From a bacterium (GTDB lineage Bacteria > Patescibacteriota > CPR2 > UBA1875 > CAIMLA01), in assembly GCA_037129835.1 (NCBI GenBank), contig JBAXUE010000001.1:26085-90084 (forward strand): a stretch of 64,000 nucleotides of DNA, in the 5' to 3' direction. The stretch's first letter is position 1, and every line of letters starts with the position of its first letter. Below the pieces are notes generated by a model that saw only the letters and a program-made list of their open reading frames with translations, ran no database searches and had not been told where the DNA came from. Shown one piece after another: positions 5,692 to 58,679 of this stretch. The position numbers and the translations under genes were made by a program.

Positions 5692-5828
5692 TAGCTCGGT
5701 GTTATCGCCTTAGCAGCTGTAGGATTCGGGATATGGTTTTTTGGGAAAAATAAAAAAATATCTTCCAAGTAAATTAATATTCCTGTCAAACCAGATTCGT
5801 ATTTTAAAAGAGGTTTTTATGACCTCTT

Positions 5829-6086
5829 TTAAAATATTGATTTTTCGATACCTTCGTCTAGATATTTTATGCGCTTAAAACAGGCGATACCAGTCATAAT
5901 AAACAACAAAGTAGTGATTATCATAATAAACAAGCAACTGCCACCCACGAACATATAGTTTATTGAATCTATGGTACCGATCATTCTCATCGTTATGTCG
6001 ATTATTAACAATGTCACGATGGCCGTCAATAGTGTGACAACAGTCATTATTCCCCAAGCTATTACTCCCTCAAATTCTTTTGTCAA
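5829..6086 (-). CDS. small 2-TM membrane protein
   Basis: 85 aa, with two long hydrophobic stretches. Confidence 0.35.
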   Translation of the reverse strand: MTKEFEGVIAWGIMTVVTLLTAIVTLLIIDITMRMIGTIDSINYMFVGGSCLFIMIITTLLFIMTGIACFKRIKYLDEGIEKSIF

Positions 6087-7416: not shown

Positions 7417-9012
7417 ATGAAAAAGTGGCTACCGGTAATTGTACTCTCGCTCGCGTCGTTTGTGATGGTGCTCGATAGCACTGTAATGAATGTGTCTATA
7501 TCCAAGCTTGTTACGGATCTCAATACTTCAGTAGCAGGAATTCAGCTCGCTATTACACTTTTTACTCTAGTGATGGCCTCTTTTATGCTCACAGGCGGCA
7601 AAATGGGTGATATCTGGGGGCGCAGAAAGGCATTTAAAATCGGACTACTGATTTATGGGACTGGTTCGCTAATCACATCTCTTTCTCTTGGTCTACCAAT
7701 GTTGATAGCGGGATGGTCGATTGTGGAGGGTTTGGGCGCAGTACTAGTAATGCCTGCGATAGCGGCACTAACTGCGGCTAATTATCAAGGCAAAGATAGG
7801 GTGGCAGCTTTTAGTATACTCGGCGCAGTTGCCGGAGTTGCAGCAGCAGCAGGCCCTCTTATCGGTGGCGCAGTTACTACTTATCTGTCTTGGCGATATG
7901 TTTTTTCAGCAGAAACCGTAATAGTCTTGATAATATTTTTCGTTTTTGCGAATAAAATAAAGGACGTCCCCGTTACTTCGAAATCTACTTTAGATATACC
8001 AAGCGTAATCTTATCTGCGCTCGGTTTATTTTCTATAGTTTTTGGAATACTCCAGTCTAAGGTCTGGGGGTGGATTACTCCTCTCTCAGCCCCAGTAATA
8101 AATGGGCTGAAAGTTACCCCATTTGGTTTTTCTTTAGTGCCTTTTCTTATCGTTTTTGGGATAGGGATACTTTGGTGGTTTACAGCCAGACAGGAAAAAC
8201 TTAAAAACCAAGGTAAAGATCCGTTGTTAGACATATCAATGTTAAAAATACCCGCTGTTCAAGCAGGGCTTTCAAATATCACTATTCAGTATCTTTTAAC
8301 TGCAGGATTGTTTTTCGTAATGCCAATATACCTTCAAATGGTTCTCGGGTTAGACGCATTGTCTACTGGTATCAAGATATTGCCTATGTCTATCGCGCTT
8401 ATTATAGCATCTCTAGTTGGCGCTAAATTAGTAAGTAAATTTTCTCCTAAGAAAATTATAACTTGGGGTAAAATATTGCTATTGCTCGGTATGTTTACCA
8501 TATTGGCTTCCATCGATCCTGAGCTTAAAAATGGTTATTTAATAGTTGGCATGTTTTTTGTTGGTGGTGGGTTGGGCTTTATGGCATCTCAGATTGGGAA
8601 TGTTATTCTATCTGCTGTGGACGAAGACAAAACTTCGGAAGCAGGGGGACTACAGGGTACTTTTCAGAATTTTGGGTCATCCCTCGGTACCGCACTTATT
8701 GGCTCTGTTCTTATTGCGTCTCTTACCTCTGGTTTCGTTGCCACCGCTACTGGCACTTCAAGCGCGCTTCCAAGCAATGTGAAAACATATATTTCGGAGC
8801 ATACTACAGGTGGAGTAGCCGTTGTTAGTAAAAGTGAGGTTTATCAGTATTCTATAAGTAAGGGGCTAAGTATTTCAGAATCTCAAGAAATATCTGATTA
8901 TTATCTATCGGCACAGATGCAGGCACTGAAGACTTCTATGCTTGCACTTACTCTTTTGGCACTTCTGGGACTTCTATTTTCAAAAAACCTACCAGAAGAA
9001 TTAGTAAAATAG
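7417..9012 (+). CDS. MFS transporter, DHA2 (EmrB/QacA-like, 14-TM) family
   Basis: N-terminal LDSTVMNVSISKL...GGKMGDIWGRRKAF is a typical drug:H+ antiporter signature. 531 aa. Confidence 0.8.
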   Translation: MKKWLPVIVLSLASFVMVLDSTVMNVSISKLVTDLNTSVAGIQLAITLFTLVMASFMLTGGKMGDIWGRRKAFKIGLLIYGTGSLITSLSLGLPMLIAGWSIVEGLGAVLVMPAIAALTAANYQGKDRVAAFSILGAVAGVAAAAGPLIGGAVTTYLSWRYVFSAETVIVLIIFFVFANKIKDVPVTSKSTLDIPSVILSALGLFSIVFGILQSKVWGWITPLSAPVINGLKVTPFGFSLVPFLIVFGIGILWWFTARQEKLKNQGKDPLLDISMLKIPAVQAGLSNITIQYLLTAGLFFVMPIYLQMVLGLDALSTGIKILPMSIALIIASLVGAKLVSKFSPKKIITWGKILLLLGMFTILASIDPELKNGYLIVGMFFVGGGLGFMASQIGNVILSAVDEDKTSEAGGLQGTFQNFGSSLGTALIGSVLIASLTSGFVATATGTSSALPSNVKTYISEHTTGGVAVVSKSEVYQYSISKGLSISESQEISDYYLSAQMQALKTSMLALTLLALLGLLFSKNLPEELVK

Positions 9013-10595: not shown

Positions 10596-11213
10596 ATGAG
10601 TACGGAAATGACTACAGGAGGCAAGGACGCACTTGTGCGTATCTTGCCAAGTTGTGGTGGTACCATGAGCACAATGTGGCATCTAGCGCGAATGATTCGT
10701 GATAGCAAAAGTATGAATCTCCGAGAAATACTCGGCGGCCTACTCGATCATCCTGATTCGGCGGCGCTAGGGGAACTGGTAGAAACTTGCGAAAAAGTGA
10801 ATGACCTCATCGACATGGAGGGGGTAATAACCCACTTCGCAAGCTACGAACACCTGTCCAAGTTTGACACAGTTACGACAGTCGTCGCAGCTGAGCTTCC
10901 AGAAGAAGAGCAGACAATAGCGCACACACTTTTGCCGTTAACCCTTATACATGGGGGTTACTCATACGAGAATGACGACGTGTATTTGCCTATTTCTGGT
11001 CTTGTACAGATTGGCCCAAGCAACGGGACTCCGTATGCACATCTTGCTAGCGTGATCTGGCTAGAAGACGGTGGCCTGTCAGCTCGAATCATGTCAGAAC
11101 AAGCGGGAAACGGAGTCGTTGAAAGAGCGAGGAAGCTTAGCGGTCTAGACTACGGCAAAGCGCCTAGACTTACAAAGGCAACTATCGCTGCCAAAGAGGC
11201 TCTAAAGATGTAG
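10596..11213 (+). CDS. hypothetical protein (locally high GC, possible acquired gene)
   Basis: Strong SD aggaggtg 6 nt upstream of the ATG at 10596. GC is about 50% against about 36% in the flanks. Followed by an 11-bp GC hairpin. Confidence 0.45.
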   Translation: MSTEMTTGGKDALVRILPSCGGTMSTMWHLARMIRDSKSMNLREILGGLLDHPDSAALGELVETCEKVNDLIDMEGVITHFASYEHLSKFDTVTTVVAAELPEEEQTIAHTLLPLTLIHGGYSYENDDVYLPISGLVQIGPSNGTPYAHLASVIWLEDGGLSARIMSEQAGNGVVERARKLSGLDYGKAPRLTKATIAAKEALKM

Positions 11214-11239
11214 GCCGGCTTCCTTTCAGGAAGCCGGCC
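11213..11239. terminator. GC-rich hairpin between convergent genes (ggccggcttcc-tttca-ggaagccggcc)
   Basis: Perfect 11-bp stem, 5-nt loop. No strong U-tract on either strand. Confidence 0.45.
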
Positions 11240-11282
11240 TCAACCATATATTACAAACATTGTGGTTTGTAATTAAGATAGT

Positions 11283-25785: not shown

Positions 25786-26427
25786 TTATACAAGCCCTTG
25801 ATTATCGGTAATAATACCCGATACATTCCTCATATTTTGTATTAATGCGAGATCTTCTTTGGTTTTAACATCCCAAATAATTATTTCTTTATCAAATATA
25901 GAAAATAGTAGAGATAATTTATTTAATAAACTATATTTAGGTACAAACAACTCGAAAAAAGGCAGATATAGTAGATTTTTGATAAATCTCTCAGATAACA
26001 ATAAACCTACTTTGATAGAGGGGAATTCCTTATTAATCTTCTTTAATGATTTTGGATAGAAAGAAGAAATAATATATCCTTCGTTTTTAATATATTTTTG
26101 AGTTAAATTAATGACTTCAGCTTCGTATCCAACCTCTTTTAGCTCAATATCTAACTTTATTTTATGAGCTACGAGCTTAAGAGTATCTTCAAGTGTTGGT
26201 ATGTCTGGGTATAGTTTCTGTAATTCGTTTAGCGTTAAATCGCATAGCTTAGCATTCTCTAATTTTTCATCGTGGAAAACTACTAGAGTGCTATCTTTGA
26301 GCCTTCTTACGTCAAGTTCTATTCCATAAAAGCCAGACTTTATCGCCGTTTCAAAGGCAGCGAGGGAATTTTCGGCTTCTGTTTCATGAGCACCCCGATG
26401 TGCATATTTGTTCATTTGTTTTTCCAA
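25786..26427 (-). CDS. glycerophosphodiester phosphodiesterase (GDPD) family
   Basis: YAHRGAHETEAENSL...ELDVRRLKD...VFHD motifs. Confidence 0.75.
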   Translation of the reverse strand: MEKQMNKYAHRGAHETEAENSLAAFETAIKSGFYGIELDVRRLKDSTLVVFHDEKLENAKLCDLTLNELQKLYPDIPTLEDTLKLVAHKIKLDIELKEVGYEAEVINLTQKYIKNEGYIISSFYPKSLKKINKEFPSIKVGLLLSERFIKNLLYLPFFELFVPKYSLLNKLSLLFSIFDKEIIIWDVKTKEDLALIQNMRNVSGIITDNQGLV

Positions 26428-27176
26428 GAAGTCTCAAAGAAAGCCTTGATTGCAAAGAATACCAAAGTGTCGTCGATGGTAAAGCCATAAGGCTCTTTTT
26501 TGTTGTATTTGATAAAGGTAACATTGTCGTCGTAAATGAATATATCCATATTCCGTGGCATCCCCGGCATATCAACATATTTCTTTTTCCATAGTAGCTT
26601 TGCAAGCACTTTTGGGTCGTGTTTCGTGTCTGTATTGATAATCTCTCTTATCTCGATGTTTTTCGCGATTCTCTCAGGCCGAAATTTTCTCTCTAACCAT
26701 GCCTCGAGGTAAGTGTTTTTGCCTTGCTCTGAAAGGATTAACAGTAGTTCACTGGGATGTTTTTTAAGCATGTCTGTATATAGCTTTTGGACTCCTTCTA
26801 TACCGTAAAGAACGTGTATCCCAGGCCGATCCTTGGCTAGGCTGTAGAGGCTTTTTAGTTCTGGCATGGCATCGTTTAGGTCCTCTCGGTAGGTTTCTAA
26901 AAGTCTTATGTTGTCGGTACATAGCTGAGTGAGTATCTCCGGGTCTTCAGGATTATAGCGAATCTTGTTGTGCCTTGCATCTTTCTTTACGACACCTTTC
27001 TTCTCTAGGTTAGCAAGTATGATGTAAGCATTTTGTCGAGAAACTTTCATTCTCTCGGCTATTTCTGGTGGAGTTAGTTCGCCATTTTCTAGAAGGAGCC
27101 GATAGCACTCAGCCTCGCTTTCGGCTAATCCAGCCATTTCAAAGATATCTTTTTTCATAAAAGTAGCATAGCACAT
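26412..27176 (-). CDS. winged-helix transcriptional regulator (TrmB/MarR-like HTH)
   Basis: N-terminal LAESEAECYRLLLENGELTPPEIAERMKVSRQNAYIILANLEKKGVV. Confidence 0.55.
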   Translation of the reverse strand: MCYATFMKKDIFEMAGLAESEAECYRLLLENGELTPPEIAERMKVSRQNAYIILANLEKKGVVKKDARHNKIRYNPEDPEILTQLCTDNIRLLETYREDLNDAMPELKSLYSLAKDRPGIHVLYGIEGVQKLYTDMLKKHPSELLLILSEQGKNTYLEAWLERKFRPERIAKNIEIREIINTDTKHDPKVLAKLLWKKKYVDMPGMPRNMDIFIYDDNVTFIKYNKKEPYGFTIDDTLVFFAIKAFFETSWKNK

Positions 27177-27258
27177 AGTGGGTTAAAATGTCAACAGTCA
27201 AAGTGACAAACCAGTACATTATACCCTTTTCCCATAAGCTCACCAATCAAATATAATA

Positions 27259-27286
27259 TTGACATAGAGCCAAAAGGGAGTATAAT
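27259..27286 (+). promoter_or_regulatory. near-consensus sigma70 promoter (TTGACA-16-TATAAT) reading into the GC-rich island
   Basis: Seen directly. Followed by imperfect palindromes and a GGGCGG/CCGCCC hairpin before the first island gene. Confidence 0.5.
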
Positions 27287-27462
27287 ACATCACTGTAATA
27301 TCTGTCATAGGCAAATGTTACATACCTTGACAATAGAATAATCAAATAGGTGGTACCTACTGCCGACGGGTCGAACGAATTCATCGATCCATCGGTGGTA
27401 GGTAAGGGGCCTACACTAAAACAGAAGGGCGGGGGACCGCCCAGACAACGAAGGGAGTGGCA

Positions 27463-27837
27463 ATGAAAACCACTCTGTACGTAATCGCCGCGTTCGTCGC
27501 GGTGACAGTTCTGATAGTCGTCCTCATGATGTGGACGACCGGCTTGGAGCTCTTTGGGCTCCAGCTGGGAAAGCACGTGACCAACGCGGAAACGCAGGTC
27601 ATGAGGCAGACCCAGCAGTACAGAACCACCCAGGAGACCAAGTTGGCCGACTGGATGGCGTCGTACGATGACGCCGAGAAGCAGATCGCACTCGTAAAGG
27701 ACGATCCCGAGGCTGTCGCCACTCTCCGTGCCAATCAGGCCGGAATTGTGCGTCAGATGAAGGTATTCGTTTCTAGCGGGCAGATCGCGAAGGAGAACGT
27801 GCCGACAGACGTCCAGGAGTTCCTAGCGTCCCACTAG
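27463..27837 (+). CDS. N-terminally membrane-anchored protein (island gene 1)
   Basis: SD gaagggag 5 nt before the ATG. One TM segment then a polar domain. GC about 55%. Confidence 0.45.
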   Translation: MKTTLYVIAAFVAVTVLIVVLMMWTTGLELFGLQLGKHVTNAETQVMRQTQQYRTTQETKLADWMASYDDAEKQIALVKDDPEAVATLRANQAGIVRQMKVFVSSGQIAKENVPTDVQEFLASH

Positions 27838-27856
27838 TTCCGAAGGAGGAACAAAC

Positions 27857-28459
27857 ATGAAGCGTTTCATTACGCTTGCAATCGTTGTTATGCTGGCGCT
27901 TTCGGCTCTTGCTCTCACCGGTTGTGACGAGCAGGTTGACAATTCGTCCGCCACCACCAAGGAGGCGGCGATAGTCAACTCTCAGGATTCGGTCTATGCC
28001 AAGGGGCAGCCGATTCCGAGGTTCGACTACTCGATTCCGAGAGATCTCTTCACACAGTTCTACAAGTTCCAGACTCAGGAGGGCATCAACACTTACAGTG
28101 TGGTGTCTGACATCAACGGCAACGTGTACTATGAGGGCCCCACGATGGGGTACCCTATTCCGTACAACAGCCAGTTGACCAACCCGGAGAAGACCGAGGT
28201 CCATGAGGGCAACTACAATGGCGGAAACGTCACGTTGCCCCAGAGTGAACCGAACGGTCTCTACACTTCGCCGACAACGAACGCCACAATAGTGATGTTC
28301 ATCGATCCGGCGACCGGTAAGCTGATGCCTGTCTACACTGAGCTCAATGTGACGTGCTTCCCCTTTACGGTGAAGAAAACGGCTACAACGAGCACAGTGT
28401 ACCAGAAGAGCGGGTCTCCGACCGCGCTCCTTGCCCCCAAGGGCAAGACGACCAAGTAG
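27857..28459 (+). CDS. lipoprotein (lipobox LALTGC)
   Basis: MKRFITLAIVVMLALSALALTGCDEQ. SD gaaggagg. Confidence 0.55.
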   Translation: MKRFITLAIVVMLALSALALTGCDEQVDNSSATTKEAAIVNSQDSVYAKGQPIPRFDYSIPRDLFTQFYKFQTQEGINTYSVVSDINGNVYYEGPTMGYPIPYNSQLTNPEKTEVHEGNYNGGNVTLPQSEPNGLYTSPTTNATIVMFIDPATGKLMPVYTELNVTCFPFTVKKTATTSTVYQKSGSPTALLAPKGKTTK

Positions 28460-28636
28460 TTCCCCTATAGGGTAAGACCGTAAGGTCGAACCCTACCACC
28501 ACCATGGGGCTCGGTGCATCATTTGCGCCGGGCCTCAGTTCCTTATTATGTATCTTTGTAGATAGGAGGACACCTACCTCTCCTCCTATCCGCACGGATG
28601 CGGAAAACAAAAAACGATCCCCAGAAAGGGGGCACC

Positions 28637-28780
28637 ATGTTCTGGTTTATCCTGAGCTTGGCCGCTGCAGTATTGTGCGGTTGGACTGGCTATAAGGGTA
28701 AGCTCGCGTATAATTTGTTACTCTCTGGAGCTAACTTTTTTTTCGCGGGCTACCAGCTGGCAGTATTGTTGGCTCGTTAA
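28637..28780 (+). CDS. small hydrophobic peptide (about 47 aa), cassette A
   Basis: MFWFILSLAAAVLCGW...GYQLAVLLAR. SD aaggggg. Preceded by the CCGCACGGATGCGG hairpin. Confidence 0.35.
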   Translation: MFWFILSLAAAVLCGWTGYKGKLAYNLLLSGANFFFAGYQLAVLLAR

Positions 28781-29163
28781 CTGACACCGATTGAGGCCAA
28801 AATAGCCTCAGAAACGGAGGGCCAAATTGCCCTAGTACGGGTCCTATCCGCTCGGACCAAAAAATATAGCGGGTAATGTATCCGATGCATTGAGGTGGTT
28901 TATATCGGAATCGATTTATTAAACCACTAAGGCCACCCTTGAGGTGCGTCTGCTTCGGCAGAGAGTGATACTCCCTCATCGACACAGAGATATGACTACT
29001 AACCCACAAGGTTAGTCTCTGAGAAGAAAAGTCGGGGGTGCGTTTGAGTGATGAGCTCAACCACCCCATTCCTATTATCTATTCGGATTATAGAACAACT
29101 TGTTTTATAACCCGCACGGATGCGGGAACAGACAAAAACACCAAAACCTCGGAGGGAGGTAGT

Positions 29164-29325
29164 ATGTTTAGTCTGCACATGGCTATGATCATGGTTGCTC
29201 TGACTGTTTATCAGTTCAGGAGTGCCATGAAAAGTGGTCGTACCTGGGATTGGTTCTGGGCAGTCTGGAATGCCTTTCTTGTGGGGGTTAACCTCATGTT
29301 GGGTATTTACCAGCTGACCAGGTAG
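29164..29325 (+). CDS. small hydrophobic peptide (about 53 aa), cassette B (paralog of A)
   Basis: MFSLHMAMIMVALTV...GIYQLTR. SD ggagggagg. Preceded by CCCGCACGGATGCGGG and followed by the 62-nt repeat. Confidence 0.35.
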   Translation: MFSLHMAMIMVALTVYQFRSAMKSGRTWDWFWAVWNAFLVGVNLMLGIYQLTR

Positions 29326-29338
29326 CCAAACCTGGTAC

Positions 29339-29400
29339 CCGCCTGTCACTGGGCGGTAGTGAAAGTAGTCGCTGGCTGATGTGGCTACAAAGAATACAGT
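29339..29400 (+). repeat. about 62-nt direct repeat copy 1 (CCGCC-tgtcactg-GGCGG hairpin plus conserved tail)
   Basis: About 90% identical to 29642-29703, including a perfect 27-mer atgtggctacaaagaatacagtgaaaa. Confidence 0.6.
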
Positions 29401-29441
29401 GAAAATGCAAATGTACCTTCATTCACCATTAGGAGGTGGAA

Positions 29442-29636
29442 ATGTACCAAGATAAGAACAACGAGGACATTGATATCACGGCTGAGATAATCAGATTCGT
29501 GGTCTCACTGGGACTCTCGTGGGGTCTTATCTGGGGCGTAGGGCGTATTTTCGGGATTGATTTCTCGTCAATTGCCTACGCGGTCTCGGTAGGTACCCTG
29601 GTAGGGATTACCTACAGCCGTTTACGCCGGAGATAA
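29442..29636 (+). CDS. small membrane peptide (about 64 aa)
   Basis: SD aggaggtgg. Followed immediately by repeat copy 2. Confidence 0.35.
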   Translation: MYQDKNNEDIDITAEIIRFVVSLGLSWGLIWGVGRIFGIDFSSIAYAVSVGTLVGITYSRLRRR

Positions 29637-29641
29637 TTCTC

Positions 29642-29703
29642 CCCGCCTGTCACTGGGCGGTATCGAAAGTAGTTGCTAGCTAATGTGGCTACAAAGAATA
29701 CAG
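29642..29703 (+). repeat. about 62-nt direct repeat copy 2
   Basis: See copy 1. Confidence 0.6.
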
Positions 29704-29877
29704 TGAAAAAGCACATAGCCTGACTTCCTGCTTGATTAATCTTGCAGGGAGTTGGGTTGTTCCATTCTCAATTGCGATTAGTAAGCTGAATATATCTTAT
29801 CTGATATAGACAGCTTACTGGCTGTAAAGTCAGTACCATACCGCCCCAGCGGAAAGCTATCCTCAGTAATGAGAAGA

Positions 29878-29932
29878 GTGAATAGTGAAATATGAAGGCG
29901 ACTAAAAATCGTATTCATATTTCACTATTCAC
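29878..29932. repeat. 19-bp perfect inverted repeat gtgaatagtgaaatatgaa / ttcatatttcactattcac with 17-nt spacer
   Basis: Seen directly. Exact reverse-complement arms. Confidence 0.7.
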
Positions 29933-30351
29933 AATGGGGCCCCACACTACAAGGGGAGAGGGGGGATCCTAACAGAAGGAGTCGCTAGCCAAATAGTCTA
30001 GTATCCGACTCTAGAAGTTAGGGCGCAACCAAGTGTAGTCGTCGTTAGCAGTATTGCGACGTAAAATATTCTTCTGCAAATGCCCCCGACGGGGCACAAG
30101 CGGTTTTTACACCACCGCTTAATCAAAAAGTGTAGCGTGGTACGCTACCACGATAAATACATGCTAAGCCCAGCGTTCCTGATTTGGGGGCGCTTGGCCT
30201 TTCCTTGTCACCAGCAAAGCGTTTCCATATATTGTTCGAGATTTGTCGAGAACTACAGTTCATGAATAAATAAGAAACTTTATAAGGGGATACCTTGCTG
30301 CTAACAAGCAGAAGGAAAGCAGGCCAAAATAGCCTGTGATTACGATTCACC

Positions 30352-30591
30352 ATGGAGAGGTGGTGTAGGGAGATGGAACGACTTAGGGATCAGATCTTGA
30401 TCGTGATGATAGGAGTGTATTTCCTCATTGTGATCACTCTGATCGCTAGCGCGGCCGTATTTGTAGCCCAGCTGATGCTGGGGGCAGGTATCTCGATCTT
30501 CTTGATCGTACCGGCCTGTATTTTGACCGGCCTCATGGCGACGGTAATTTTCGTCGCCCTGGTGGTCCTGGTTGATCATATCCACAGTTAG
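30352..30591 (+). CDS. small 2-TM membrane protein
   Basis: Hydrophobic, 79 aa. The long antisense ORF 30340..30951 was rejected. Confidence 0.35.
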   Translation: MERWCREMERLRDQILIVMIGVYFLIVITLIASAAVFVAQLMLGAGISIFLIVPACILTGLMATVIFVALVVLVDHIHS

Positions 30592-30636
30592 GACAGTGGT
30601 CAACCACACGATCAACCTCTGGAAGGAGGTGAACAA

Positions 30637-30819
30637 ATGCCGCTTTGGTTCCATATTGGGGGGGTCATTCTCCTCGAGTTGGCGATCATCGGTATCCCGA
30701 GCATGTTGTTTGGGATGTCGATGGCGCAGGGAAATCGCAATGAACAGATCCTCATTGGATCTCTCGTCGTGATTGGGGCGCTTCTGTCCCCGTTTGTTTT
30801 TGCCATTATGATGGCTTAG
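30637..30819 (+). CDS. small 2-TM membrane protein
   Basis: SD aaggaggtg 5 nt upstream. 60 aa. Confidence 0.4.
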   Translation: MPLWFHIGGVILLELAIIGIPSMLFGMSMAQGNRNEQILIGSLVVIGALLSPFVFAIMMA

Positions 30820-31245
30820 GCGAACGCGCCCTGAGGGCTGGTAACTCCCAGCCATTGGCAACAAAGGAGAGGCATGGACAATAGTCCTAGTTCTCTCAGA
30901 GTGCCAGCGAAACAACGCTGGAATCGTGAGGTGTGCACTCATGAGAAACAAATAATTATTGAGGGCCCAAGTACCGTTGTGAAACGGGATGCGGGCCTTT
31001 TCGCTTATTAGAAGTATAGAGTATTTTGGATAGTATTGTTTTGAAGATCAAATTTAATGAAACCCGATACCTACAACGTAGTTATGGTTCAACTTGTTGA
31101 AGAAATTCAAAATAGAACAGGCTAAAGTTGATACCTCGCCAGCGTTATCACAAGTTTTTTTGTGCTTGAATACATTGACAAATAAGTATAAATACGTTAA
31201 AATAAATAATTGTTTTGGGTATAAAAATCTGGATATTCTCTAGAT

Positions 31246-31965
31246 TTGTGTTCCCAATACAGGGAACAAGTATGCCTCGGAAGGAGGCTGATAGTTGTGT
31301 TTGGTGACACAAACTTGGTAGTCGACGGAACTCTTGTACTGGTAGTCATCTTTAGCTTGGTCGCCATAGCTTTTTCACACCGACGTAGTTATCTTTTGAA
31401 GGCAGAAGTTACCAGGTTGGCAACGGAGGTCTTGCGGATAGGGGCAGACAGAGACAATCATCAAGAGCTGTCTTTGATCGATCCACTAACCGAGGTGGCA
31501 AACAGAAGAGCGATTGGCCTGTATTTGCAGTATGACATGGAGCGCATGTCACGCTATCCTGGGGAATATTCGCTCATGTTTGTAGATATTGATCGCTTCA
31601 AAGCAGTCAATGATACTCGTGGGCATGCTCTCGGGGATGAGATCCTTCTGGCAGTCGCCAAGTCTCTCGAGCTCACCTTTCGCGAAAGTGATACGGTGGG
31701 GCGTTACGGCGGCGATGAATTTGTTGTATTGCTGCCAAATGCAGATCTGTTCGCTTCTAAGGCAAGAGCTGAAGACGCACTAAAAGCAGTTCGCGACATC
31801 GGCGAGGTTTATGACCTCGATATATCCCTGTCTATAGGCATAGTGACTGTGATAGGTGGTCAAGAGATTACTCTCAAAGCACTGTTAGACGCTGCAGACA
31901 AGGGCCTATATTGTGCCAAGAACAAAGGAGGCAACTGCTGGTCGAGAGGATTTGTAGAACTCTAA
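31246..31965 (+). CDS. GGDEF-domain diguanylate cyclase with N-terminal TM segment
   Basis: RYGGDEFVVLL, DPLTEVANRRA, DIDRFKAVND. The likely true start is a GTG/TTG near 31294 after SD ggaagg. Confidence 0.8.
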   Translation: MCSQYREQVCLGRRLIVVFGDTNLVVDGTLVLVVIFSLVAIAFSHRRSYLLKAEVTRLATEVLRIGADRDNHQELSLIDPLTEVANRRAIGLYLQYDMERMSRYPGEYSLMFVDIDRFKAVNDTRGHALGDEILLAVAKSLELTFRESDTVGRYGGDEFVVLLPNADLFASKARAEDALKAVRDIGEVYDLDISLSIGIVTVIGGQEITLKALLDAADKGLYCAKNKGGNCWSRGFVEL

Positions 31966-33714: not shown

Positions 33715-34581
33715 ATGAATGATCAACAAGATAACTTTGGGAAAGAGCCTTCGCCAGAATTACTAAGGGCTGAAGTTGTGCCTCCAGGTGAAAACCAAGA
33801 AACACCCGAAGATTTGAAATCTGGTGGAGAAAATATCGCCGAAAATAGTAGTGATAATAAGGAATCAGAAATATCTTCTCTTCAAGAAGAGATTCGAGAG
33901 CTAGCCGAGAAATCAAATTCATTGAACGAGCGAATTCTTCGAATTGAAACAGATAAAAAAAATACTTCTGAGCAGATTAACGAGTTGCGTTCTGGTTTGG
34001 GCCTATCGGCAGACAAAGAATTATCAGAGAGCGATAGTGATGAAGAAAGGCTAAAAAGCCTAATCGATTTAAAAGAGATTCTTAGAGACAAAAAAGATAA
34101 ATTATTAGAAGAGCACGGTAATGAAGCAGTGCCAGAGGGAGTTGTAATAGAGAGCGGCGACAATAGTCTTGAAGTCAAGACGTCTATTGCCGAAAGCGAA
34201 GTACCTCCAGATCAATCAGCAGAACAAGAAACAGAGAACAGAAAAAAACTTTTTGAGCGTGGCAAAGAAAACGTTGTTAGAGAGTATGAAAAATATTTAA
34301 GGTCTGATTGGTCAACAAAAGGCGCCATAAATCTTGAAGCCGCTATTTCATTAATGAAAGAAAGAGCCCCCGAGGCTATGGACAAAATGGCGGAAGAATA
34401 TTTGAGCGGTAAAGAGGACGGCAAACTCTGCAAGGAAATATTTATCAAATGGGACACTACACCATGGAGTGAAAGATTTTCTGGTAAGCCAAATGAAATT
34501 AAAAATATGAAAATCAAATTCGATGAAGAAGAAGTTCCAATTACGGCGAGAGACGAAGCCATTGGGACAGATGATAATTAA
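33715..34581 (+). CDS. acidic coiled-coil protein (tandem paralog 1)
   Basis: E/K-rich. The C-terminal half aligns with the next gene (VPEGVVIESGDNSLEVK / IPEGLVIETKNGHFETR; KPNEIKNMKIKFDEEEV / KPNQIRGMELTFDKEKI). Confidence 0.5.
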   Translation: MNDQQDNFGKEPSPELLRAEVVPPGENQETPEDLKSGGENIAENSSDNKESEISSLQEEIRELAEKSNSLNERILRIETDKKNTSEQINELRSGLGLSADKELSESDSDEERLKSLIDLKEILRDKKDKLLEEHGNEAVPEGVVIESGDNSLEVKTSIAESEVPPDQSAEQETENRKKLFERGKENVVREYEKYLRSDWSTKGAINLEAAISLMKERAPEAMDKMAEEYLSGKEDGKLCKEIFIKWDTTPWSERFSGKPNEIKNMKIKFDEEEVPITARDEAIGTDDN

Positions 34582-34601
34582 TTTAAACATAATTTAAAAC
34601 A

Positions 34602-34628
34602 AAAAAAACCGCCTATAGGCGGTTTTTC
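34602..34628 (+). terminator. rho-independent terminator aaaaaaaCCGCCTATAGGCGGttttt
   Basis: Perfect 8-bp stem plus a U-tract. Confidence 0.8.
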
Positions 34629-34681
34629 AATTGCATGTTATGAATTTATAAGCTATCTTTTATTAAAATGAAAGGAAAAAT

Positions 34682-35623
34682 ATGTTAAACGGTAGAGAAG
34701 GAAATGCAAGTATTGAGAAAACAGATAAGACAGTTGAGCCTGCAGAAAAAAATGAATCTGATGTAGTGCCAGAATCTAATTCAGACAAAGATACTGAGGT
34801 AGGGGGAAATGCTAATGGCGAGAAAGAGGCTACACCTCAGCAAGAAATAATAACAGTGCAGAACGATATTGACAGAATAGAACAGCGGATATTACTTCTA
34901 AGGAAAAGCGACGCAGAAACTCAGCGTCAAAAGGACGAGCAATATAGAAACCTAGGCATAGAATCAGAAACAACCACTGCAAAAGGGAATGATGCCGCCG
35001 TTGAGTTATTGGAAGAACAAAAGCTACTCCTGACTGAACATAGAGCCAAGTGGCTAGAAGACTTTGGGATAGAAAAAATACCTGAAGGATTGGTTATAGA
35101 AACAAAAAACGGACATTTCGAAACACGGATTAACCCGTTAGATATAGCAGAAGAAATCTCGGAAGTAGAATCGTCTAAAAATAAAGAAAAAAAAGAAAAG
35201 GAAGCCCTTGTGGAAAGGAAGCAAATTTTAGAAAATTGGAAAGCTAGAGCGATAAAAAAATTCCAAGCCTTTCTTGAAAGTTCTTGGCAGTCTGTTGATG
35301 CGATTAATCTAGAGCTAGCTGTTCACATTTTGGGTATAAAAATACCCAAAGCAATCGATAAAATAGGAGAGGGCTTTGCAAAAGGAGAGGTAGACGATCT
35401 GCCCTCAAATATCTGGTTTAGTTTTAGCGCAAACTCATTTATAGATAGATTGTTAGATAAGCCAAACCAGATACGTGGCATGGAGCTAACTTTTGATAAA
35501 GAAAAAATAAATATGGCAGGAGAAACAGAACTAGTTACAAAGGAAGAAAAGGAAATACAAAAAGATGATAATGAGCAAGATGAGGGTGACTTAACACCTC
35601 AAGAAGCAACTTCGGAGAATTAA
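34682..35623 (+). CDS. acidic coiled-coil protein (tandem paralog 2)
   Basis: See paralog 1. Confidence 0.5.
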   Translation: MLNGREGNASIEKTDKTVEPAEKNESDVVPESNSDKDTEVGGNANGEKEATPQQEIITVQNDIDRIEQRILLLRKSDAETQRQKDEQYRNLGIESETTTAKGNDAAVELLEEQKLLLTEHRAKWLEDFGIEKIPEGLVIETKNGHFETRINPLDIAEEISEVESSKNKEKKEKEALVERKQILENWKARAIKKFQAFLESSWQSVDAINLELAVHILGIKIPKAIDKIGEGFAKGEVDDLPSNIWFSFSANSFIDRLLDKPNQIRGMELTFDKEKINMAGETELVTKEEKEIQKDDNEQDEGDLTPQEATSEN

Positions 35624-35647
35624 ATATACTATTCAATAAACAAATAT

Positions 35648-35672
35648 CGCTTTCCAAAAAAATTGGAAAGCG
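35648..35672. terminator. bidirectional hairpin cgctttcca-aaaaaat-tggaaagcg
   Basis: 9-bp stem. On the minus strand it is followed by a U-rich tract and lies downstream of the tRNA pair. Confidence 0.55.
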
Positions 35673-35677
35673 ATATT

Positions 35678-35752
35678 TGGTGGCTGCGGGTGGATTTGAA
35701 CCACCGACCAACAGCTTATGAGTCTGCTGCTCTACCCCTGAGCTACGCAGCC
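35678..35752 (-). tRNA. tRNA-Met (anticodon CAT; elongator or Ile2-lysidine type)
   Basis: My own fold: GGCUGCG acceptor, GCUC D-stem, anticodon loop CUCAUAA, T-arm GGUGG-UUCAAAU-CCACC, encoded CCA. Confidence 0.8.
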
Positions 35753-36875: not shown

Positions 36876-36950
36876 CGCGGGGTAGAGCAGTGGCAGCTCG
36901 TCGGGCTCATAACCCGGAGGTCGTAGGTTCGAATCCTACCCCCGCTACCA
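36876..36950 (+). tRNA. tRNA-Met CAT with initiator-like features (fMet)
   Basis: Three consecutive G-C pairs closing the anticodon stem (GGG CUCAUAA CCC). Unpaired 1:72 (C:U). T-arm GUAGG-UUCGAAU-CCUAC. CCA encoded. Confidence 0.85.
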
Positions 36951-36953
36951 AAA

Positions 36954-36992
36954 ATGAGTTTCTCACTCGCTGAGAAACTCATTTTTGTTTTG
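36954..36992 (+). terminator. rho-independent terminator (12-bp stem atgagtttctca / tgagaaactcat plus TTTTGTTTTG)
   Basis: Seen directly. Confidence 0.85.
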
Positions 36993-43705: not shown

Positions 43706-43984
43706 TCTTGACCTGGCGGTAACAATTTATTATAATAATCGCATGTTAGCTATTTTTACAACATTTATCCTCGTCCTCGTACTAGTTCTAGCTATTATCG
43801 GTAGCTATAATGAGGTTGTGTGTGAAGAAGTTAAAATAGATGAATAGATAAAATATAAAATTTCACAAATATAAAGCCTCACTATTATAAAGTGAGGCTT
43901 TTTGCAACGTCCTGGAGAGGCCAAACCCTCTCCAGGACGACCAAAATTCGGCAGAATGCCGAGCACCTATAGAGGGGAGAGAGC

Positions 43985-58601: not shown

Positions 58602-58679
58602 ATACCCTCCAAGTTAATTATATATTACAACAAAACAGGTAGCCTTTGCTACCTGTTTTGAATACGTCATGACATATTA

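Follow-up and report, generated by a model that had tools for sequence, protein, structure and literature searches.

The question raised by this locus is what a long, perfect inverted repeat represents in the chromosome of a small-genome bacterium of the Patescibacteriota. The stretch analysed, 64,000 nucleotides (nt) of contig JBAXUE010000001.1 (GenBank assembly GCA_037129835.1) and called the window throughout, contains GTGAATAGTGAAATATGAA at 29878-29896 and its exact reverse complement TTCATATTTCACTATTCAC at 29914-29932, separated by a 17-nt spacer. Both a reading of the sequence and a repeat finder gave these arms, exactly as in the original prediction, which was made from the letters of the window and described a 19-bp perfect inverted repeat with a 17-nt spacer inside a GC-rich island. 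The location was also correct, since the GC content is 0.44-0.52 over 27-32 kb (0.46-0.52 in the island itself) compared with ~0.38 elsewhere in the window. The island (27200-31010, ~3.8 kb, all called genes on the plus strand) is foreign in origin and derived from a phage. We found that the repeat is a hairpin-type GTGAA-heptad element, in which two blocks of three 7-nt units converge and the GTGAA block comes first. Hairpins of this type recur between genes of uncultivated phages, normally in the short spacers of co-directional late genes. The copy in the window lies on phage-derived DNA and is abutted by no stop or start codon of a gene, and for this reason we regard it as an orphan copy. 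As to its action, we tentatively prefer a cis-acting RNA stem-loop.

Each arm is made up of three phased units: GTGAATA, GTGAAAT and ATGAAGG on the left and, as their mirror, ATTCATA, TTTCACT and ATTCACA on the right. In the left arm GTGAATA occupies 29878-84 and GTGAAAT 29885-91, and ATGAA at 29892-96 runs on to the GG at 29897-98; TGA is thereby present in all three frames of the plus strand. The right arm carries the mirrored heptads as ..TTCAT(A), TTTCACT and ATTCAC(A). Pairing continues into the spacer (29897-29913), where a 1x1 mismatch (G29897/A29913) is followed by four inner base pairs, giving 23 bp in total and a 7-nt loop. On the plus strand this inner helix joins 29898-29901 to 29909-29912, includes a G.U pair (29898/29912) and is closed by the loop CUAAAAA. 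The loops of L054 and L039 also contain the spacer motif AAGGCGA. The hairpin has a folding energy of -30.5 kcal/mol as RNA (z = -9.25) and -20.8 kcal/mol as DNA (z = -11.2). A search of the hairpin against Rfam 15, at both gathering and permissive thresholds, returned only sub-threshold matches to microRNA precursors, as is the case for any hairpin.

The claim that such a repeat is not a product of chance was borne out. It is the longest short-range inverted repeat of the window, and a perfect inverted repeat of 19 bp whose spacer is at most 60 nt has, by our own estimate, a chance probability of ~1e-5 to 1e-4 in 64 kb. The phased heptads of the arms and the excess of similar viral loci over a control, given below, point in the same direction. 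The window contains no second exact copy of the arm, and the idea that paired copies might mark the ends of an element was accordingly abandoned. The left arm is also the sole instance of phased GTGAA..GTGAA in the window. Arm matches with three or fewer mismatches are expected by chance 0.02 times in the window; a copy with three mismatches, CTGAATAGTGATATTTGAA, is present at 8271-8289 on the minus strand and, lying within an MFS transporter gene, was taken as a chance match.

GTGAA heptads in viral contigs and Bacteroidota

A pattern specifying the cores only, GTGAANNGTGAANNNTGAA-N{10,25}-TTCANNNTTCACNNTTCAC, was searched in a collection of viral contigs, with an otherwise identical pattern built on the permuted core GAGTA as a control. 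The inverted GTGAA pattern was found at 23 viral loci compared with 1 for the permuted core, a difference of ~20-fold that establishes the specificity of the inverted family for the GTGAA core. In the viral matches each arm comprises 3-7 heptads, which exceeds what the pattern asks for, and several contigs carry more than one match. The heptad consensus is GTGAA[T/A/G][G/A/C], the core being kept at a strict 7-bp phase with two variable positions (NN). Direct runs of at least five GTGAA heptads were present at 120 or more loci. Direct heptamer runs with permuted cores were also common in IMG/VR contigs (58 loci for GAGTA and 72 for AGGAT; L175-L303), which indicates that heptamer tandem repeats are a general feature of viral contigs. 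These control runs consist mostly of perfect copies of one heptad, while GTGAA runs mix the NN positions. The GTGAA core, above all in its inverted form, stands out from this heptamer background. The window copy has three phased units per arm, the GTGAA block on the 5' side and a spacer (17 nt) within the 10-25 nt of the pattern. Its third core matches at 4 of 5 positions, and compared with the viral arms of 3-7 perfect units it is the weakest member of the family.

The position of the arrays relative to genes was also determined. On the strand that reads GTGAA, a partner arm was found downstream in 16 and upstream in 1 of an unbiased set of 108 arrays, and the window copy has the order of this majority. 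Paired arrays sit between co-directional late genes (tail, terminase, portal, tape measure, protease), beginning 3-10 nt past the upstream stop codon and finishing 17-40 nt before the next start. Hairpins that extend from stop to start between late genes are within transcripts. Arrays that read GTGAA abut or include the stop codon of the upstream gene, with TGA in all three frames, and arrays that read TTCAC are located 5-20 nt upstream of the ribosome-binding site and ATG. A strict rule by which GTGAA is always on the sense strand, suggested by the first 13 of 13 lone arrays, did not survive a larger count (77:57, p = 0.10); the early figure was partly an artefact of ORF calling (ORF, open reading frame), because GTGAA arrays stop all frames. 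A rule of position, with GTGAA blocks after stops and TTCAC blocks before starts, fits better than a rule of strand. No small or binding protein was shared among the fetched flanks of 138 array loci, and Rfam gave no match on six loci that bear arrays. Taken together, the family data support recognition of a phased core and a position inside operons, and they are compatible with either RNA or DNA as the active form. Some individual phage contigs have very long GTGAA/TTCAC arrays, with 15 to more than 20 heptads (L044 1268-1370, L105 2583-2734, L131 6961-7098); in the TTCAC direction these arrays are open in all frames and are fused to neighbouring ORFs by ORF callers.

The original prediction would have yielded to the finding that the arms occur at many unrelated loci as a generic genomic repeat. 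Exact matches to the 19-nt arm do exist at 9 unrelated loci in genomes, and in 4 or more cases the match is part of a long GTGAA array of Bacteroidota, but the arm is not repeated within this genome. The arm is thus a generic type of motif and not a repeat of this genome. In a Prevotella contig (L007, JAFVHO010000046.1, 6218-6262) the entire ftsH-cdsA spacer is a direct run of 7-8 GTGAA heptads that contains the identical 19-mer as well as the ftsH stop and the cdsA start. The 19-mer is also found in another CPR genome, at 2167-2185 of a Saccharibacteria contig (L008, CAYHXN010000002.1), where a dnaJ-like gene starts ~20 nt further downstream; the surroundings have neither heptads nor similarity to the island, and we treated this occurrence as a probable chance match.

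The closest described elements are the TAACTGA heptamers, direct repeats found in intergenic regions of Beggiatoaceae, Cyanobacteria and Bacteroidetes, for the most part a short way ahead of start codons (MacGregor 2015, PMC4679880). Their function is not known, although a post-transcriptional role has been proposed, and they are nearly always direct, with 169 direct sets and 1 indirect set in the BOGUAY genome (PMC4679880). Heptamer repeats near start codons have also been reported in Nostoc. Like the GTGAA arrays, the TAACTGA repeats are tandem 7-nt units that contain TGA and so place stops in all three frames, are intergenic and often only nucleotides away from a start, and are present in Bacteroidetes. 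They differ in having a fixed heptamer where the GTGAA units have two variable positions, and the GTGAA set comes mainly from phage contigs. The direct GTGAA arrays elsewhere fit the TAACTGA class; the repeat in the window does not, being inverted, having another core and having no gene start after it. Neither the two-unit GTGAATG sequence GTGAATGGTGAATG nor its complement was found in open-access papers. The repeat is best filed as an inverted variant, not described before, of these little-understood intergenic heptamer-repeat elements.

The repeat in a sister lineage

Nine contigs from several lake metagenomes were 100% identical to the locus, and among contigs of the same organism no empty site lacking the repeat was seen. 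A sister lineage (L031, L032, L034, L035) was recovered by one metagenome scan and one exact-protein look-up. Between the two lineages the host flank is 83% identical, pieces of the island are 93-99% identical and the island as a whole ~95%. The island is mosaic in structure. Conserved parts are the promoter and leader at 27249-27448 (99%), ORF C (99% at the DNA level), the ORF-free gap that holds the repeat (94-96%) and ORF E. Identity is lower in ORF B (83%), ORF A is missing from the sister lineage, and a diverged allele stands in place of ORF D. The first two genes have also been exchanged, for alleles that blastn could not align. Conservation ends at the ribosome-binding site of ORF D (30366). 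The breakpoints of the mosaic (27448, 28453, 28607, 28977, 30366 and 30609) are at gene borders and none is at the repeat.

Across 29837-29994, the segment centred on the hairpin, the lineages have 1 difference in 158 nt, compared with 45 in 730 nt for the whole gap. The sole change, C29930T, converts the G29880-C29930 pair to G.U on the plus strand and to A.C on the minus strand, and breaks the palindrome as DNA. The stem is retained in the sister lineage, with a loss of 2.2 kcal/mol on the plus strand (-30.5 to -28.3) and of 6.4 kcal/mol on the minus strand (-29.9 to -23.5). Over the whole gap the plus-strand energy is likewise kept (-279.2 to -277.3 kcal/mol), while the minus strand loses 14 kcal/mol. 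In a consensus fold, 11 substitutions fall at paired positions on the plus strand, all of them wobble-compatible, compared with 3 on the minus strand.

In T4-type phages, promoter-early stem-loop (PeSL) cassettes flank small ORFs in hyperplastic regions. The island resembles them in that conserved non-coding modules border small, rapidly exchanged ORFs, with a leader that is 99% identical, conserved spacers and swapped alleles. It differs from them in sequence, and a role of the repeat in such shuffling is not supported, the breakpoints lying elsewhere. The sister island also has an extra GC-rich ORF of 241 amino acids with an HELGH motif (L032 2171-2896; L034 2692-3417), and the sister lineage does not have the two host genes located at 33715-35623 in the window.

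Candidate modes of action

Our preferred reading, which we advance tentatively, is that the repeat is a cis-acting RNA stem-loop in the transcript of the island. We favour it because the genes of the island are co-oriented behind a consensus promoter, the folding of the island is exceptional on the plus strand and C29930T preserves a wobble pair, and also because the island has no gene for a DNA-binding protein and members of the family are within transcripts. The promoter, of the sigma-70 type (TTGACA-16-TATAAT, 12/12), is at 27259-27286 on the plus strand, at the left edge of the island, and we infer that the island transcript starts there. In 200-nt windows over 27200-31000, folding was far above that of shuffled sequences even in the coding parts, mostly stronger on the plus strand, with values near 0 in the flanks; the lowest plus-strand value (z = -7.35) was at 29800-29999. 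Transcribed rightward from this promoter, the element would fold in the island RNA into a stem-loop of 23 bp (-30 kcal/mol) that would act in cis on the transcript. It may be a determinant of RNA processing or stability: with 19 bp, a 1x1 loop and 4 bp it is as long as the helices that RNase III accepts, which span about two turns of double-stranded RNA (at least 20 bp), and it is a putative target of cleavage. Intercistronic hairpins processed by RNase III are found in the mRNAs of phage T7. The T7 hairpins are comparable in being ~20 bp or more, located between the cistrons of polycistronic phage transcripts and just upstream of the next ribosome-binding site, and they differ in having no heptad periodicity. 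Alternatively, the stem-loop may insulate the translation of the cistron C part from that of the cistron D part, and a factor that reads phased GUGAA units could be involved.

Several observations weigh against an RNA stem-loop. Direct arrays of the family occur in both orientations relative to genes at the ratio given above, their NN positions are complementary in only 47%, and their mismatches show no excess of G.U on the sense strand (11 vs 18, p = 0.26). The window copy does not fill an intercistronic space, being 241 nt past the stop codon of ORF C and 440 nt ahead of the start of ORF D. Folds of the single sequences shrink the advantage of the plus strand (9 pairs kept and 8 broken, vs 6 kept and 10 broken). 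The comparative evidence consists of two haplotypes and one stem substitution, and the high conservation may reflect only the recent transfer that the identities of island (~95%) and flank (83%) suggest.

The family data would also suit an array that is bound as double-stranded DNA, operator-like or centromere-like, by a protein, possibly supplied by a phage, that reads one 7-bp TTCAC/GTGAA unit per subunit. We consider this possible but doubtful. The strict 7-bp phase of the core with two variable spacer positions, the occurrence of direct and inverted arrays in both orientations relative to genes, the lack of selection on NN pairing and the lack of a sense-strand G.U excess are all as a binding array would predict. 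A model exists in omega, the ribbon-helix-helix ParB of pSM19035, of which one dimer binds each of 7-10 heptads 5'-WATCACW-3', direct or inverted, and for which contiguity of at least four heptads matters (PMC9499535). The period, the direct and inverted arrays and the near-identical core (WTTCACW, with TTCAC one base from the ATCAC of omega) are shared. The units in the window, WTTCACW and ATTCATA, are nevertheless one base off WATCACW and form 3+3 units split by 17 bp. The omega sites overlap promoters and adjoin the omega and delta genes; the window has no such genes and the GTGAA family is found inside operons, where the arrays take up whole intercistronic gaps, stop and start codons included, so that a promoter would have no space. 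No ribbon-helix-helix, ParA or other DNA-binding gene is present in the island and no protein is shared by the 138 flanks. Furthermore, a single dedicated protein is difficult to envisage for a family that is spread over quite dissimilar phages (GC 0.47-0.66) and also occurs in a housekeeping operon of Prevotella, and the TTCAC core is broken in the sister lineage. It is also conceivable, although we think it unlikely, that the repeat has no function and is a fragment of an intercistronic repeat of a phage, or arose by slippage and palindromic duplication, and that it was carried in with the island and appears conserved only through recent acquisition. Its detachment from any stop or start codon, the absence of another heptad array in the host window and the identity of 95% in the island vs 83% in the flank would agree with such a relic, and the heptamer runs with arbitrary cores (58 and 72 loci) show that a mutational source exists. 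A neutral perfect 19-bp palindrome, however, is expected to decay or be deleted. The single difference in 158 nt at the hairpin, compared with 45 in 730 nt in the gap and 83% identity in ORF B, the wobble-compatible nature of that one change and the ~20-fold excess of the inverted GTGAA architecture over the permuted core also argue against a relic.

The original prediction had proposed a protein-binding operator, an origin of replication or transfer, or a recombination site. The notion of a recognition-type element stands; the other proposals, together with that of a mobile-element end, we regard as very unlikely. A long, AT-rich perfect palindrome in foreign DNA could extrude as a cruciform, given the energy of the hairpin as DNA, and the island is a mosaic between lineages. 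But scans of the island ORFs with Pfam and PHROGs (27.2-31.2 kb) found no Rep, relaxase, integrase, transposase, DNA-binding, ribbon-helix-helix or ParA domain, and no larger ORF appears under stop-codon reassignment. The arm is single-copy in the window, the mosaic breakpoints are away from the repeat, and neither the island nor the gap has a DNA-level match among phage or plasmid records. Members of the family are found inside operons, several per phage genome, and stop-to-start gaps within operons are not where origins or recombination sites sit. Least probable of all is an intrinsic (Rho-independent) transcription terminator. The host does possess long perfect AT-rich hairpins beside tRNA genes or gene ends (35641-35679, 36949-36987 and 5800-5836), but the stem of the repeat is 26% GC, its 3' flank is AATGGGG on the plus strand and CTCTTCTC on the minus strand, with no T/U run on either, and a terminator scan did not list it.

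If the RNA stem-loop or another function holds, GTGAA-heptad hairpins mark a recurrent, undescribed punctuation signal between phage late genes and would be connected with the heptamer repeats of Bacteroidetes, cyanobacteria and large sulfur bacteria, which still lack an explanation. A broader proposal, which is speculative and on balance improbable, is that GTGAA-heptad hairpins and arrays exert intercistronic control in the late operons of phages and in operons of Bacteroidota, as a class of elements that is widespread but has not been described. A conserved factor, for instance the ribosome, ribosomal protein S1 or some phage protein, would read them at a 7-nt phase, and the window copy would then have been exapted in a highly structured, promoter-driven RNA of 3.7 kb in a CPR-like bacterium, an RNA in which alleles of membrane proteins and lipoproteins are rapidly exchanged between conserved non-coding scaffolds. 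For annotation, the GTGAA-heptad signature is a simple, searchable mark of phage-derived DNA. In the present genome it draws attention to a small island, gained by horizontal transfer, in which conservation is higher in the non-coding parts than in the genes. Even as a relic the repeat would be of use, as a palindrome that is neither an origin nor the boundary of an element.

The island and the host chromosome

The repeat is part of a hairpin-dense, ORF-free gap of 736 nt (29637-30372, plus strand) between the small ORFs C and D. No ORF was found in the gap under the standard code or any stop-codon reassignment, and a hidden large gene in the island was ruled out, none appearing under reassignment of TGA, TAG or TAA; mini-ORFs of 8 and 12 codons are all that abuts the repeat. 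Folding of the whole gap gave z = -10.8 on the plus strand and -13.2 on the minus strand. Hairpins in the gap include those at 29642-29660, 29723-29752, 29780-29819, 29878-29932, 30081-30097, 30101-30121 and 30131-30153. The third of these is a palindrome with 17-nt arms, AGTAAGCTGAATATATC at 29780-29796 and GATATAGACAGCTTACT at 29803-29819. It is the nested palindrome GTAAGCTG-N22-CAGCTTAC that had been predicted at about 29798-29835; this does exist but is at 29781-29818, ~17 nt further to the left.

A 75-nt direct repeat, consisting of a hairpin CCCGCC-N7-GGGCGG plus 56 nt, has one copy upstream of ORF C (29338-29412, plus strand) and a second, 91% identical, at 29642-29716 on the same strand, where it forms the beginning of the ORF-free unit around the inverted repeat. 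There is a partial third copy at 29976-29989, and the metagenome contigs L027 and L029 end at this direct repeat. A tandem unit of ~305 nt was considered and rejected, as only the 75-nt repeat aligns. The short hairpin motifs AGGCCAAAATAGCCT (28794-28808 and 30321-30335) and CCGCACGGATGCGG (28590-28603 and 29112-29125) each occur twice in the island, the latter ahead of the paralogous ORFs A and B. Repeatedly, independent assemblies of this organism end inside the island (27283/27293, 27811/27819, 28591, 28996 and 29590/29719; L010-L029), which suggests repeats or strain heterogeneity there.

The first two genes of the island (27463-28459) encode a membrane/coiled-coil protein of 124 amino acids with a weak match to Rz-spanin and a lipoprotein of 200 amino acids (phrog_24725, 1e-18), the latter with homologues in T5-like Vibrio phages and prophages. 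Relatives of the lipoprotein led to phage early or replication regions in which the repeat is absent. The closest, L019, shares the gene pair alone (75% identical) and diverges ~120 nt past the gene. The island also carries five small hydrophobic ORFs. ORFs A (28637-28780) and B (29164-29325) are paralogous, encoding ~50 amino acids with two membrane helices, a GG[TS]MF start and a YQL end; ORF A has a weak match to phrog_37267. ORF C (29442-29636, plus strand, 64 amino acids) has two predicted membrane helices and a strong GGAGG ribosome-binding site, and no homologues of it were found outside its own 90% cluster. ORF D (30373-30591, plus strand) encodes a hydrophobic protein of 72 amino acids.

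The island is bordered on the left by a TrmB-like gene on the minus strand (26412-27176; Pfam TrmB, 2.8e-15) and on the right by a GGDEF gene (31297-31965), upstream of which there is a second near-consensus promoter (31175-31203). The TrmB-like regulator had been proposed as a protein that might bind the repeat. The gene is real, but it is 2.7 kb away and no link to the repeat was found: the region upstream of it (27177-27460) contains no GTGAA, and there is no GTGAA-heptad site nearby. Operators of the TrmB family are palindromes of the type TATCAC-N5-GTGATA, and the half-sites in the window are in the opposite order, with GTGA first.

The rest of the window is bacterial chromosome, with hrcA-grpE-dnaK-dnaJ, comEC, ruvB, type IV pilus genes and a NiFe hydrogenase. 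That many of its proteins lack a Pfam match suggests an organism of CPR-like character. The AT-rich host hairpins at 35641-35679 and 36949-36987 are perfect over 17 bp and directly flank tRNA-Met genes; similar hairpins are present at 5800-5836, 11212-11240, 43908-43939 and 58631-58660. Those at tRNA genes and gene ends are probably bidirectional terminators of the host.

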